From: a virus
IMG/VR virus record: IMGVR_UViG_3300006639_000058
Reading direction: 5' to 3' (one strand)
Length of the DNA stretch: 16,958 nt
The notes beneath the pieces are model-generated. The model worked only from the letters and a program-made list of their open reading frames with translations. It was not told the DNA's origin and did not search any database. Both the position numbers and the translations under genes were made by a program. Position 1 is the stretch's first letter. Each line of letters opens with the position of its first letter. Shown here one piece after another: positions 5,865-16,958 of the stretch.

Positions 5865-6253
5865 CCGATCGTGTACTCGCCGGTGATGCGGAGGGTGAAC
5901 GAGGCGCGGATCGCGTCGTTCACCGCGACCTCGGGGGACCAGTTCTCGACGATGCACGTTCCGGAGATCGTGGCGCTTGTGTGGAGAAACATGCTGAAAT
6001 AGAGCGTGGCGCCACTCTTCACGGCGCCCTCGACGAGCGCCTTCACCGCATTGCCCTGGTCGTAGTAGCAGCTCCCGGTGATCGAGCCGCCGCGGATGCC
6101 GGCGATGAACGAACGGTCGAGGCCGCCGATCTCGGTGACGTCGACGAGCTCGGTGTTTAGAGACACGCTGGCGGTGGCGATGCCGAGAGCGGTGGTCGGC
6201 GATGCCGTGGCGGCGACGTACAGGACGGCGTTGTTGGTGTTGTAGACGGCCAT
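5861..6253 (-). CDS. Major tail (tube) protein, small TP901-1/lambda-V-N-like type (130 aa)
   Basis: ATG 6253. The pattern ELVDVTEIGG..RSFIAGIRGGSITGSCYYD ... ATISGTCIVENWSPEVAVNDAIRASFTLRITG is typical of tube proteins. The position relative to the neck and chaperone genes also fits. Confidence 0.7.
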   Translation of the reverse strand: MAVYNTNNAVLYVAATASPTTALGIATASVSLNTELVDVTEIGGLDRSFIAGIRGGSITGSCYYDQGNAVKALVEGAVKSGATLYFSMFLHTSATISGTCIVENWSPEVAVNDAIRASFTLRITGEYTIG

Positions 6254-10576: not shown

Positions 10577-12229
10577 TCAGAGATCCTCATATCCGCTTCG
10601 AGTCTGGCCACCCCACGCGTGCAGGCCCATGATCGCGGCGACGAGCGGGTCGACGATCGACTTGTTCTTCCGCTTGTCGACGCGGATGTTGCCGTTCGCG
10701 TCGCGGATCGCGATCGCCGTCCGGCACGCGTTCCGCATGATCGGGTCGTCGCCGATCACGATGCGCCCGCCGACGTAGTACTGCTGCCACAGCTGGCACC
10801 CGGGACCCATGGTCGAGATCCCCTGCGAATACGACTGGAGCGGGATGCCGTCGACATTCACCACCTGCTCGGAGAAGTACTTCGAGCCCCACTGGTCGAA
10901 CGCCACCGCCTGCAGCTGGAACTCCTCCGAGATCCGCCGCAGCTCCTCGCGGATCGCGTCGTAGCTGATCTCGCGGCCCGGCGTCAGGGTCAGGTGGCCG
11001 TTCGCCGCCCAGGCGCGGACGGGCACGCGGTAGTCCAGTTCCCGCTGCCTGATCTCGGCGTCCGGCCACCAGTAGTGGCCGCGGAGCGCCACCCGCCCGT
11101 CGTCGAGCGGGACGCAGACGACGAGGGCGGTCATGTCAAGGGATTTGGACAGGTCGAGGCCCGCCCAGGCGGCGCGCCCGCGCAGCGCCGGCCAGTCGAT
11201 GTCCGTGGGCTTCGGGTAGATCGACAGGTCGAGCCACCCGCCTCCACCCTCGGTCATCCGGCACGCGTGGTAGCGGGCGAACTCCGCCCGCCCCATCGCC
11301 GTCGTGCGGGCGGACGCCCAGGCGCGGCGGATGCTGCGGACGTCCGGCTGTCCGTGCTCGCTGCCGGGATTCGCCTTCGGCCAGACCTCCTCGTCGTCCA
11401 CCTGGTCGTCGGCGTCGATCCCGTACAGCATCGCCACCGTCGAGTCGTCCGTGATCTCGCCGGTGAGGATCGACTCGGCGTGGGCGATCTTCTCGCCGTA
11501 GATGTTGTCCGGGTTGTCGGACGGCGTCGAGATGATCACGCCGAGCGCCTCGCGCCGCTTCGCCATCGAGCTCGTCAGCTTCGACAGGAACCGCCCCCGG
11601 TACTCGGCGGCCTCGTCGGCGATCCACAGCGACGGCGTGAGGCCGTCGAGGGACGTCTCGCGCGCCGGCAGCGCCGTGAACATGCAGTCGGCCTCCTGCC
11701 GCAGGATCGAGTATTGCCGGATCACCATGTCCGTCTTCTCGCCCAGGCGACGCACCATGGTCTTGGCGCTGTCGAGGAGAATCTCGGCCTGCTCCTCGCG
11801 GTTCGCGATGACGTGCACGCGGCGGCCCGGCGCGGTCTGCATGTCGTACAGACAGAGGGCGGCCATCAGCGTGGTCTTGCCATTGCCGCGGCCGACCTGA
11901 AGGATGCCGTTCGTGACCCGCCGGCGGCGGTCGTCGGTCCACCGCCACCCCCACAGATTCGCAAGCGCCCACGCCTGCCACGGCGCCGGCACGAACGGGC
12001 GGTCGGAGTCGTCGCCGATGAGGGCTAGTGTCCCCATGAACACTAGCAGGCGGTCCACCTCCTCCCAGTCCATGTAGATGTCGGTGCGCTCGAGGTCCGT
12101 CAGGAACCGTTTCGCGGCCGCGTAGATCCACTTCCCCGCCGGCCGCGAGCCGTCGACGATCGACTCGGCGTACGCGGTCACGATCTGGCGCGCGTTTGTG
12201 TCGGTATTTTGGACGGTTACAGGCGGCAC
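10577..12229 (-). CDS. terL: Terminase large subunit (Terminase_1-like, 550 aa)
   Basis: GTG 12229 with AAAGGAG 8 nt upstream. Walker A-like QVGRGNGKTT, Walker B-like LWIADEAAE and a C-terminal nuclease-like region. The gene lies upstream of the portal gene. Confidence 0.9.
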   Translation of the reverse strand: MPPVTVQNTDTNARQIVTAYAESIVDGSRPAGKWIYAAAKRFLTDLERTDIYMDWEEVDRLLVFMGTLALIGDDSDRPFVPAPWQAWALANLWGWRWTDDRRRRVTNGILQVGRGNGKTTLMAALCLYDMQTAPGRRVHVIANREEQAEILLDSAKTMVRRLGEKTDMVIRQYSILRQEADCMFTALPARETSLDGLTPSLWIADEAAEYRGRFLSKLTSSMAKRREALGVIISTPSDNPDNIYGEKIAHAESILTGEITDDSTVAMLYGIDADDQVDDEEVWPKANPGSEHGQPDVRSIRRAWASARTTAMGRAEFARYHACRMTEGGGGWLDLSIYPKPTDIDWPALRGRAAWAGLDLSKSLDMTALVVCVPLDDGRVALRGHYWWPDAEIRQRELDYRVPVRAWAANGHLTLTPGREISYDAIREELRRISEEFQLQAVAFDQWGSKYFSEQVVNVDGIPLQSYSQGISTMGPGCQLWQQYYVGGRIVIGDDPIMRNACRTAIAIRDANGNIRVDKRKNKSIVDPLVAAIMGLHAWGGQTRSGYEDL

Positions 12230-12276
12230 CTTGGGGGCTCCTTTTTCCCTCGAAACCTACCCCCCCCATCCACCTG

Positions 12277-12310
12277 AGTTATCCACATTGTGGATAACTT
12301 GTGGATAACT
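12277..12310. promoter_or_regulatory. Array of three perfect consensus DnaA boxes: a 23-bp perfect palindrome plus an adjacent 11-bp direct repeat
   Basis: TTATCCACA at 12279-12287 (+). TGTGGATAA at 12289-12297 and 12300-12308, which is the same box on the minus strand. The 11-mer TGTGGATAACT occurs three times (12277-12287 inverted, 12289-12299, 12300-12310). A degenerate box CCATCCACC lies at 12266-12274 and a C8 run at 12260-12267. Confidence 0.6.
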
Positions 12311-12566
12311 AGGCGTGGCGCTTGCAATGGCAGTCCTTGCAAAGGGTTGCGAGGTTTGTCTTGTCGTAGGTGAGATCAGGTCGTTGCGCTCGAGGGATAA
12401 TGTGGTGCACCTCCTCGCCTGGGCGCCCACAGTCGACGCATCGAGGGTTTCGACGCATCCACTGATTGCGCATCCACGTCCATCGGCCCCCAGTGAGGCG
12501 CCGGCCGGACACGTTGAACGTCTTGGCGAATGCGGGCTTATGGGTGAATCGTGGGATCGATGCCAT
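12309..12566 (-). CDS. HNH endonuclease (85 aa), the packaging-associated type found next to terminase genes
   Basis: ATG 12566 with AAGGGG upstream. The motif CVDCGRPGEEVHHIIPRAQRPDLTYDKTNLATLCKDCHCKRH contains the Cys pairs and the H-N-H residues. Confidence 0.85.
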   Translation of the reverse strand: MASIPRFTHKPAFAKTFNVSGRRLTGGRWTWMRNQWMRRNPRCVDCGRPGEEVHHIIPRAQRPDLTYDKTNLATLCKDCHCKRHA

Positions 12567-12927
12567 GGGCACCCCTTGCGATGAGCTCCTGCCGGTAAGC
12601 GATGGCACCTTGGGCGGCCGTGCTGTCGCCGACCCACGTCTCGAGCGTCTGGATCACAAGCCATGGCCCGCGAGACTTGCGGTGGAAGATCACCCACGGT
12701 TGCCCTCGGGCGTCCCTCTGGACCTGCGCAAGGGTGTCATCCCACTTGAACGTCTCGGTGCGCTTGACCTCGACATGCAGGCCGAGGCCGTCGCACATGA
12801 TGTCCGCGGCGGTCCCAGGACGCCCGCTGTACTGCACGCTTCTCCTGCACAGGAGGCCCATGCTGTTCAGCCGGTCGACGATCTCCCTCTCTCCCACGGC
12901 TCCCTTTCGTCGTGACATGCCTCCCAT
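12538..12927 (-). CDS. Hjc-like PD-(D/E)xK Holliday junction resolvase / endonuclease (129 aa)
   Basis: ATG 12927 with GGAGG 5 nt upstream. RRKGAVGEREIVDRLNSMGLLCRRS..SG......DIMC.....HVEVKR aligns by eye with archaeal Hjc (KRKGSAVERNIV..L...GF.V.R...SG...DII.....IEMK). Confidence 0.75.
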   Translation of the reverse strand: MGGMSRRKGAVGEREIVDRLNSMGLLCRRSVQYSGRPGTAADIMCDGLGLHVEVKRTETFKWDDTLAQVQRDARGQPWVIFHRKSRGPWLVIQTLETWVGDSTAAQGAIAYRQELIARGAHGIDPTIHP

Positions 12928-12939
12928 AGGTGCCTCCGG

Positions 12940-12996
12940 GTTTCGGCTGATCGGGGCGAAACAATCCCGACGACCTTGGAGTCGGGATTAGTTTCG
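12940..12996 (-). promoter_or_regulatory. Long bulged hairpin (15 bp) with a competing short hairpin, just upstream of the resolvase RBS
   Basis: On the + strand: CGAAAC-AATCCCGAC (12957-12971), loop 12972-12980, GTCGGGATT-a-GTTTCG (12981-12996). A third hexamer, GTTTCG at 12940-12945, can pair with CGAAAC at 12957-12962 instead. The GGAGG RBS is at about 12933-12937. Confidence 0.5.
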
Positions 12997-13038
12997 TTCT
13001 CTCTCTTTATAGGCGGCCGAAATTAATTCCTGGCTGCA

Positions 13039-14043
13039 TTATACCCTCCTCACGACCATTCTCGGACGCCCTGCGGCACCCTCTCGGACGGTTTCCACCT
13101 CGCACATGTCGAGATCGATCGCGGCCTCAAGGAGCTCGCGGGCCTTCACCTTGGGGAGCATGTGCCCCATGGCGCGCTCGACCACCTCGCGCTTTGTGGC
13201 GGTGCCGTCGACGAACGCGGCGACGAACTCCTCGGTGGTCCATTCCCGGCGGCCCGTTTGGGCGGCCTTCTTGGGCGTCCACAGGTCATCCGGGTCGGCG
13301 TCGGGCTCGAGGGTCACCACGGGCGGCGAGACGCGCAGGACGGCCGCCTGGGGCGGCGGGAAGCTTCGGCACACCGCCCGCATGGTCACGCATCCTTCGG
13401 TGGCGTGCCGAAGGTAGACGATGTGCGTGTCGGTCGCCCTCGAGATCGCGCCAGCGCCGGAGCCGACGTCGGTCGTGCCCTTCTGACTTTGGTCGCCCTT
13501 GGAAGCATGGTGCACGTTGAGCACGGACGCGTTCGAGGCCGCCGCGATCCGGTCGAGGTGGTTGTACAGCTGCACCATGTCGCCGTTCGCGTTCTCGTCG
13601 GTGCCCTTCGGGATGAACCGGTAGAACGCGTCCAGGGCGATCAGGGTCCACGTCCCGCGCTCGCGCTCGCGGACGATCTCCTCGACCTGCTCGAGGCCGC
13701 TGGATGCCCCTCTGAGCCACGCGATGTCCATGGACCTGTCCACGGCCTCGAGATCGGCTCCGAGGGCTGTAGCGACCTTGTAGAGCCTCTGTAGGCCCGT
13801 CTCGGGGTGCAATTCGTTGTCGATCAGCAGGACGCGCCCTCGGGCGACGCGCCGGCCGAGCCATGGGGCGCCCGTGGCGATGGCGATGAGGAGGCCGTAC
13901 AGCATCCACGTCTTGCCGACCTTCGGCGACGCGATCCAGTTCACGACCTCGCCGCGGCGGAACAGGCCGTCGACGACCGGCTCGCGCAGGCTCGGCGGGC
14001 CCTTCGCCAGATCAGGACGGGTCAGATACAGTCGCTCACCCAC
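13039..14043 (-). CDS. RepA/DnaB-like RecA-fold P-loop ATPase (AAA_25-like replicative helicase candidate) with a C-terminal winged-helix-like domain (334 aa)
   Basis: GTG 14043. Walker A SPKVGKTW and Walker B LIALDAF. The pattern LLIDNE, LNVHHASKG and GSGAGAISRATD is typical of plasmid and phage RepA-like ATPases. Confidence 0.8.
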   Translation of the reverse strand: MGERLYLTRPDLAKGPPSLREPVVDGLFRRGEVVNWIASPKVGKTWMLYGLLIAIATGAPWLGRRVARGRVLLIDNELHPETGLQRLYKVATALGADLEAVDRSMDIAWLRGASSGLEQVEEIVRERERGTWTLIALDAFYRFIPKGTDENANGDMVQLYNHLDRIAAASNASVLNVHHASKGDQSQKGTTDVGSGAGAISRATDTHIVYLRHATEGCVTMRAVCRSFPPPQAAVLRVSPPVVTLEPDADPDDLWTPKKAAQTGRREWTTEEFVAAFVDGTATKREVVERAMGHMLPKVKARELLEAAIDLDMCEVETVREGAAGRPRMVVRRV

Positions 14044-16743: not shown

Positions 16744-16958
16744 TCACTTGATGAGATTCTTGGAAATCTCGTTGAGCGCCTCGCGGCGCTTCTGACACCC
16801 GCCGCAGGGGCGGATTCCCACGGCGTGCGTCACCGTGGCGACGACGTCGCCGAGGCCGCGCGCGGGGCCGCGGTAGTGCGGGCACTTGTCGCACTGCTCG
16901 GCGGTCGGCCGGAGCGGCGCGAGCTCGGGGTGCGTGCATTGCGAATGAACCAGGCGGG
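16744..16958 (-). CDS. Wrap-around small CxxC...CxxC zinc-ribbon-like protein. It is 74 aa once the ends are joined; the first 10 nt are present only at 101-110.
   Basis: Joined translation: MSCTRLVHSQCTHPELAPLRPTAEQCDKCPHYRGPARGLGDVVATVTHAVGIRPCGGCQKRREALNEISKNLIK. Third positions are G+C-rich. TGA stop at 16746-16744. The ATGA coupling to the upstream gene lies at the other end of the window. Confidence 0.65.
   Translation of the reverse strand, partial: RLVHSQCTHPELAPLRPTAEQCDKCPHYRGPARGLGDVVATVTHAVGIRPCGGCQKRREALNEISKNLIK
16859..16958. repeat. Right copy of the exact 100-bp terminal direct repeat (identical to 1-100)
   Basis: Base-by-base identity with 1-100. Confidence 0.97.

Follow-up and report, generated by a model that had tools for sequence, protein, structure and literature searches.

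The viral DNA considered here, a stretch of 16,958 nucleotides (IMG/VR record IMGVR_UViG_3300006639_000058; hereafter ‘the window’), carries three perfect DnaA boxes in the short gap between its genes for an HNH endonuclease and the large terminase (TerL), next to the predicted cohesive-end site (cos) of a small HK97-like phage. Boxes of this kind recur across the family to which the phage belongs, and our best reading of them, held at a probability of about 0.4, is that they form a DnaA recruitment module for the initiation of phage replication, or for helicase loading. What the analysis establishes is where the sites are, that their placement is non-random and that they recur in relatives, together with the location of cos and the homology of the helicase encoded nearby; binding by DnaA and any role in initiation are what we infer.

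Taking as a DnaA box any 9-mer that matches TTATCCACA (relaxed form, TTWTNCACA), a motif scan places perfect copies at 12279-12287 on the plus strand and at 12289-12297 and 12300-12308 on the minus strand, and no further perfect copy in the window; both points had been made by an earlier, sequence-only reading of this DNA. That reading also gave the length of the gap (79 nt, from the HNH stop codon at 12309-12311 to the TerL GTG at 12229), a 23-bp palindrome at 12277-12299 with a third copy in 11-bp phase, a C8 run at 12260-12267 and a degenerate box at 12266-12274, and it held the motif to be too concentrated for chance; all of this is borne out. Read on the gene (minus) strand, the gap runs TAG (stop)-TTATCCACA-AG-TTATCCACA-A-TGTGGATAA-CT-CAGGTGGAT-GGGGGGGG-TAGGTTTCGAGGGAAAAAGGAGCCCCCAAG-GTG, the part between CAGGTGGAT and the GTG being G8-TAGGTTTCGAGGGAAAAAGGAG-C5-AAG. 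Box 1 (12300-12308) thus begins with the base directly after the HNH stop codon, and box 2 (12289-12297) follows in the same orientation across a 2-bp AG spacer, in 11-bp phase; box 3 (12279-12287, plus strand) is inverted and makes the palindrome with box 2, in an 11+1+11 arrangement with the centre base unpaired. The degenerate 9-mer, CCATCCACC on the plus strand, matches at six of nine positions and overlaps the homopolymer run; its significance is doubtful.

At the composition of the window, about 0.04 perfect boxes would be expected per 16.9 kb (scaled from the estimate for family loci). Only two copies with one mismatch lie outside the array (at 5980 and 16714); in shuffled sequence, 0.58 matches are expected when up to one mismatch is allowed, and none of 200 shuffles had as many as five. 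The array is identical in four other assemblies, at least three of them from separate samples and one of them only ~95% identical overall; contig L298, with substitutions on both sides of the array, keeps it unchanged.

Metagenomic homologs of TerL number in the hundreds at 50–75% identity, and the longest contigs that carry them cluster at 15–17.7 kb; by this measure the window phage is a member of a large, uncultured family of 16–17 kb HK97-like phages. IMG/VR, scanned with alignments of TerL and of HNH, yielded ~150 loci. Across 650 kb of loci from the family we count 50 distinct perfect boxes, where 1.5 would be expected, every one of them in one of two non-coding gaps: the HNH–TerL junction or the gap between the genes for a RepA-like protein and a PDDEXK nuclease. 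At the junction, one to five perfect boxes lie between the HNH stop and a conserved G-run in at least four lineages (the fourth being L015/L039). The pair TTATCCACA-AG-TTATCCACA is the form met most often, alongside single inverted boxes and opposed arrays of 3+2; boxes are usually spaced by 11 bp. In some lineages, two boxes precede the cos cut and two inverted ones follow ~55–65 nt past it. In six lineages (L114, L120, L133, L135, L136 and L144) boxes lie in the RepA–PDDEXK gap, ~370–460 nt before HNH; these have the opposite orientation and overlap the PDDEXK start, and on their own strand a G-run/C-run hairpin follows again. The hairpin of this gap has, in relatives, a long stem of the TTACGC...GCGTAA type, followed by GTCAAG and a C-run.

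The closest relative (L299; RepA 83% identical) has five boxes. In this contig no gene was called in the 510 nt between PDDEXK and TerL (L299:4005-4515), the expected place of HNH, which may have been degraded or replaced there. A relative at 67% has no boxes, with a palindrome in the same place. Among the box-less junctions surveyed (L104-L113, L115 and L136; L123-L125 and L147-L167), the same spot is occupied either by A-tract repeats (GAAAAACCGCGTTTTTG... CAAAAATGAGG) or by a palindrome of the form GGCCTATTG-N8-CAATAGGCC. Conservation, which the sequence-only reading had proposed as a check, comes out in two parts: the array is identical in near relatives and boxes recur family-wide, but their number and orientation vary among lineages and some members have none. 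On these comparisons we conclude that the boxes are a selected feature, one that is recurrent and constrained in position, but evolutionarily labile.

A DNA similarity search of the region against cultured phages gave no match, and TerL, RepA and portal show only 25–34% similarity to cultured-phage proteins. Matches in genome collections are all to misbinned contigs of metagenome-assembled genomes (MAGs) with contradictory taxa. RepA homologs at 42–48% identity (P0199, P0225, P0238 and P0240) lie on long Planctomycetota MAG contigs (Phycisphaerae, Thermoguttaceae), and one TerL relative is binned with Pirellulales; at most, these give a weak hint that the host phylum may be Planctomycetota.

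The ends of family contigs locate cos. About 55 contigs start between a few nt and ~40 nt upstream of TerL, many independent ones at the identical base, and one (L092:1-38) starts with GCTCTTCCGATCT, an Illumina adapter tail fused straight to phage sequence, which is direct evidence for a physical DNA end there. Among contigs that stop after HNH, 11 of 12 end 30–32 nt past the conserved G7-10 run, and nine others start 40–43 nt past it; mapped on junction-spanning relatives, right ends fall at +31/32 and left ends at +40 to +43 from the G-run, and in one lineage the right end (+32) and left start (+41) leave a 9-nt gap. We read this pattern as that left by a cos site whose cohesive segment, ~9–10 nt long, drops out at both assembly ends; the polarity of the overhang is not set by it. 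By homology, the right end of the window virion is predicted near 12226 and its left end near 12216 (~±2 nt), with CGCCTGTAA (12217-12225, minus strand) as the predicted cohesive segment.

The family cos element (12216-12267 in the window) comprises a G7-10 run, an AT-rich stretch and a C-run. Its G8 run (gene strand; C8 on the plus strand, 12260-12267) is the most conserved element of the junction, found also in box-less relatives, and as it is fixed 31–32 nt upstream of the virion right end we take it to be a putative cos recognition element. It pairs with the C5 run (gene strand, 12233-12237), and an inverted repeat of this kind lies just ahead of the cut in most lineages; in the window, the TerL ribosome-binding site (AAAGGAG, 12238-12244, minus strand) sits in its loop. 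Both this site and the TerL GTG are on the right-end side of the predicted cut, such that TerL would be intact and expressible only on circular or concatemeric DNA. The proposal of the sequence-only reading that cos lies in the HNH–TerL gap is supported by these contig ends, but the overlap of boxes and packaging site that it envisaged is not: the boxes sit 53–82 bp inside the predicted right end and, on this mapping, adjoin cos without overlapping it. The palindrome was likewise considered as the cut site itself and rejected, as contig termini place the cut ~55 bp downstream of it.

One 23.9-kb contig (L174, from GCA_043534995.1) is longer than one genome, its genes recurring with a period of ~17.2 kb and no bacterial sequence flanking them; such a contig is consistent with replicative DNA in concatemeric or circular form, and with a phage that does not integrate. 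The possibility of an integrated prophage was rejected on the same ground, the longest contig being of concatemer type without a bacterial flank.

Which protein would bind the boxes? We consider it very likely that host DnaA does. The repeat unit extends beyond the 9-mer to AG-TTATCCACA-W, an 11–12-mer: of 40 contexts, 38 have A at position -2 and 35 have G at -1. More than 120 IMG/VR viral contigs (L178-L297), which span 26–68% GC, carry the tandem 20-mer TTATCCACAAGTTATCCACA in exact form, ~11 of them in the family of the window; some contigs hold two to three copies ~41 nt apart. The neighbours of the 20-mer are enriched for primase/helicase, Holliday-junction resolvase/endonuclease and ParB families, and the annotations that come up most often beside the tandem boxes of unrelated phages are primase, pol-primase and AAA_25-type families, among them PHROGs matched by the RepA of the window. 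Because this 20-mer is common to diverse viruses, and the 9-mer is invariant while family proteins drop to 36–60% identity, host DnaA is favoured over a phage-specific protein. The latter had been put forward by the sequence-only reading, with the repeats as cosB- or pac-type sites that coincide with the DnaA consensus; an unrecognised small terminase (TerS) or the C-terminal part of RepA might be the binder. The bases kept beyond the 9-mer would suit such a protein, as would the position, at which TerS sites lie in HK97/lambda-like phages. Saying this, the AG flank is also present at E. coli oriC R4, the box stays invariant as RepA falls to 36% and TerL to ~50–56% identity, a purely phage-encoded binder sits poorly with the spread of the 20-mer over more than 100 unrelated contigs, and searches of Pfam, NCBIfam and PHROGs found no TerS, helix-turn-helix (HTH) or DnaA-domain-IV match in any open reading frame (ORF); we therefore regard a phage-specific site as highly improbable.

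Boxes near a terminase gene also occur elsewhere. A second, unrelated phage family (L238:3800-4520, minus strand; L203:1-330), with a TerL that is 25% identical and a gene order of VapE-like, VRR-NUC, SNF2 and HNH, has four perfect boxes in 11-bp phase, with G5 ahead of them and 13 nt between the last box and the ATG of a P27-type TerS; one of its contigs starts 38 nt before the boxes.

Our proposal for how the array might work is as follows. Host DnaA would occupy the three high-affinity boxes, whose 2-bp spacers, 11-bp phase and opposed orientations provide a layout that should permit DnaA oligomerisation. The module would belong to the gaps at the end of a replication block (RepA-like helicase, PDDEXK, HNH), and we suggest that the boxes lie near a chromosome end because this block ends in the gap; closeness to the right end and to the G-run/C-run element would then mainly reflect genome compaction. 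Once the cohesive ends have annealed and the genome has circularised, box-bound DnaA would help to start phage DNA replication, remodelling or opening nearby DNA and helping to load a replicative helicase, which might be either the RSF1010-RepA-like phage protein or host DnaB.

The sequence-only reading had named the RepA-like ATPase as a possible partner of DnaA, and its relevance is upheld by the distribution of the boxes, which mostly co-occur with the RepA gene. All 16 HNH-centred loci with junction boxes encode the RepA-like protein; a box (up to one mismatch) is present in one of the two gaps in 24 of 30 HNH-centred loci that bear RepA, and in none of 13 that lack it. TerL-centred loci agree, with one exception, and several lineages have a second box cluster directly after RepA. 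The protein itself matches PF13481 (Pfam, E = 8e-31) and the RSF1010 RepA structure (PDB 1g8y, E = 2.5e-6), and its remote homologs include a DnaB N-terminal domain. The two AT-richest 40-mers of the genome lie in the two gaps that flank PDDEXK–HNH.

Several observations weigh against a role in initiation. About a quarter of RepA-bearing loci are box-less (7 of 30, with up to one mismatch allowed), and 14 of 30 are without junction boxes; the lineage L015/L039 combines five boxes with 5.4 kb of upstream sequence in which no RepA homolog was found, a case that led us to drop an absolute rule that boxes need RepA; and the association of the two is only marginal at the level of clades. No clear AT-rich unwinding element adjoins the boxes of the window, which are flanked by the G-run and by GC-rich sequence. 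At the junction, only the array itself is AT-rich, and one has to go ~0.7 kb, to the RepA–PDDEXK gap, for the other AT-rich 40-mer; some relatives do have A/T-rich tracts beside their boxes. DnaA-trios are not enriched, with three or more (middle A on the bound strand, starting within ~16 nt of a box) in five of 39 unique contexts, against ~9 expected from shuffles, and with one trio at the window boxes; on these counts we rejected a model based on the basal unwinding system (BUS) of oriC and its DnaA-trios. A search for iterons, around the boxes and over the rest of the genome, found no such family, and no Rep-type initiator came up in Pfam, NCBIfam or PHROGs. The consensus applied is, moreover, the universal one, which the host is assumed to follow in its box preference, and, given the second family, the recurrent proximity of boxes to terminase genes could be functional rather than incidental. 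Of the suggestions made by the sequence-only reading, that of DnaA acting with a RepA-like helicase nevertheless has the most support; co-occurrence with RepA and the primase/helicase neighbours speak for it, the lack of a clear adjacent unwinding element and the RepA-less lineage against.

A second suggestion of that reading, that DnaA gates the late or packaging operon, is a live rival, albeit one that we hold to be somewhat doubtful. Here, DnaA bound after the HNH stop would block or modulate RNA polymerase on its way from the early/replication genes, over the joined cos, to TerL and the late operon. Another possibility is that DnaA regulates a promoter at the G-run-TANNNT element, with titration of DnaA by replicating phage genomes timing late expression. 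DnaA–box complexes do block RNA polymerase in E. coli, where DnaA acts as a repressor or an activator. The genes are co-directional, and the boxes lie exactly at the early–late boundary, 50–80 nt upstream of TerL; boxes overlap the PDDEXK start region in other lineages, and those of the second family would be in the leader of TerS. The hairpins and palindromes that replace boxes in box-less relatives are also what might be expected of transcription-boundary elements. However, no sigma-70-type promoter or canonical terminator was detected in the gap, roadblocks are usually orientation-sensitive and box orientation differs between lineages, and gating would leave both the link to RepA and the primase/helicase neighbours in other phages unexplained.

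We think it unlikely, though as a rival it too carries real weight, that DnaA is instead a host accessory factor at cos, shaping DNA in an IHF-like manner for the HNH–TerL nuclease of a phage without a recognisable TerS, or that its binding to the chromosome end, after injection, protects that end or helps to bring the two ends together. Such a role would make sense of the missing TerS, of the short distance between boxes and G-run (6–23 nt, mostly 6–8), the G-run being itself at a fixed 31–32 nt from the cut, and of those lineages with boxes symmetric about cos, which would place boxes on both virion ends; the four boxes of the second family hold a cosB-like position between the contig start and TerS, and phased A-tracts could bend DNA intrinsically in box-less relatives. 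But box and cut are not a constant distance apart, packaging in many family members takes place with no boxes at all, and boxes with the same polarity towards a G-run also occur in the RepA–PDDEXK gap, ~0.65 kb from cos; tandem boxes in other phages are mostly near replication, not terminase, genes, and the searchable literature offers no precedent. Stated more strongly, host DnaA would be built into the nucleoprotein complex at cos in a family without TerS, bound beside the G-run/C-run element and in some lineages to either side of the cut, in the role of TerS or IHF or to hold or protect the ends; this idea seems to us rather improbable. More improbable again is that the boxes are a DnaA ‘sink’ with no cis role for the phage, by which amplified genomes titrate DnaA and stop initiation on the host chromosome. 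Bacteria do have DnaA-titrating loci, such as datA, and high-affinity consensus sites that vary in number and are readily gained and lost would serve; a pure sink has no need of restriction to two gaps or of an 11-bp phase, however, and one to five sites per 17-kb genome would make a weak one.

The ends of the window are an exact 100-bp direct repeat (1-100 and 16859-16958), and an independent Logan contig (L018) wraps across them; the window is therefore a complete, circularly assembled phage genome of 16,858 bp. All genes lie co-directionally on the minus strand (as judged by GC3 and family searches), in the order RepA-like AAA_25 protein, a gap of ~110 nt, PDDEXK/RusA-like nuclease, HNH, the 79-nt gap and TerL, followed by portal, S78 protease, HK97-fold capsid, adaptor and tail genes. 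The RepA-like protein, kin to the RSF1010 RepA hexameric helicase, is encoded at 13039-14043 (Pfam, PHROGs and PDB matches), the PDDEXK/RusA-like nuclease at 12538-12927 (Pfam and PHROGs), HNH at 12309-12608 (probable start, the ATG at 12566) and TerL at 10577-12229 from a GTG start; the identities of HNH, TerL and RepA are backed by both Pfam and PHROGs. The RepA–PDDEXK gap (12928-13038) has no DnaA boxes in the window, but holds the AT-richest 40-mer of the genome and the conserved hairpin. Of an HK97-like cos module, the phage has HNH by the terminase, a portal of HK97 type, the S78 protease, the capsid and cohesive ends that the family contigs define, but no TerS gene between HNH and TerL. 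No ORF lies within the 79-nt gap, no integrase was found among the window genes, and Rfam and tRNA scans of the window were empty. A 170-aa protein upstream of RepA was considered as a DnaD/DnaB-type loader and dropped (PDB E = 0.35, non-significant; two homologs only). Between the capsid and adaptor genes there is a tight hairpin, G6-TTT-C7 (7510-7525, plus strand), which has the look of a terminator or attenuator downstream of the gene for the major capsid protein.

DnaA boxes are already well known in chromosomes, in plasmids and in a few phages. A conserved and remodelled array of them within 100 bp of a cohesive end is, as far as the searchable literature goes, not described: our search on DnaA boxes with cos, pac or terminase returned no paper that links them, the sole parallel near a phage end being a hypothesis for T5; work on the Mu clamp and on HK97 termination proved to have no bearing on the matter. 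What is unusual is the location of the array and its TerS-less context, in a widespread, uncultured family of 16–17 kb phages. If DnaA does load an RSF1010-type phage helicase, a tiny phage would here be borrowing the initiator of its host by minimal means; a role at cos, or as a gate to the late operon, would couple a host replication-licensing protein to virus assembly, and a place for DnaA in the cos complex would tie the host initiator to genome packaging or to the handling of ends after injection. The family supplies natural variants for direct tests (box-bearing, box-less, and with boxes on one or both sides of cos), and the mapped cos element (G-run, cut at +31/32, overhang of ~9 nt) should be useful for annotating these genomes.

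Clusters of DnaA boxes are a familiar part of the origins of P1 (oriR) and of RK2, pSC101 and F-type plasmids, where the host initiator works with replication proteins encoded by the element. The phage array resembles these in having several consensus boxes, often in tandem, within a mobile element. Compared with P1/RK2-type origins, however, iterons, a Rep_3-type initiator and an adjacent AT-rich unwinding element were not found in the phage; the putative partner is a RecA-fold helicase of the RSF1010-RepA type, and the cluster abuts a cohesive-end site. The helicase invites comparison with the IncQ plasmid RSF1010 itself, given the match to 1g8y and the opposite-strand, GC-rich hairpins that flank PDDEXK–HNH in some lineages, but neither a RepB primase nor a RepC iteron-binding protein was recognised in the phage, and IncQ replication is independent of DnaA.

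In lambda/HK97-type phages, cos is organised as cosQ-cosN-cosB with sites for TerS and IHF, the latter acting at cosB in lambda. HNH-assisted cos cleavage has been described for HK97 (PMC10359639). In common with these phages, the family has the HNH–terminase order, portal, protease and capsid of HK97 type, defined ends that carry a short cohesive segment and, ~30 nt ahead of the cut, a conserved element: the G-run, which is placed like cosQ. It differs in that no TerS gene was detected, in that the repeats by cos match the consensus of a host initiator rather than a TerS site, and in that a cosB would not fit between the cut and TerL, as the start codon of TerL is at the cut.

The basal unwinding system of bacterial oriC consists of tandem DnaA boxes, a GC-rich spacer and DnaA-trios (PMC8287927, PMC10721633). 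Common to both are tandem boxes with 2 bp between them and, further along the same strand, a GC-rich element (in the phages, the G7-10 run) and then T-rich sequence; in the phages, however, trios are not above chance, the GC element is much longer (8–10 nt plus a 6–23-nt spacer), and the G-run is tied at a fixed distance to the cos cut, in box-less relatives also. The nearest parallel by position is that of T5, for which paired DnaA boxes have been noted in the injection-stop region, as a hypothesis (bioRxiv 10.1101/866236). In both, paired consensus or near-consensus boxes are conserved in non-coding DNA near a chromosome end, away from a known origin; the T5 pairs, of which there are about eight, are spaced 3 bp apart and lie kilobases from the end, in the terminal repeat, with their function being hypothetical, whereas here one to five boxes lie within ~100 bp of the cohesive end.

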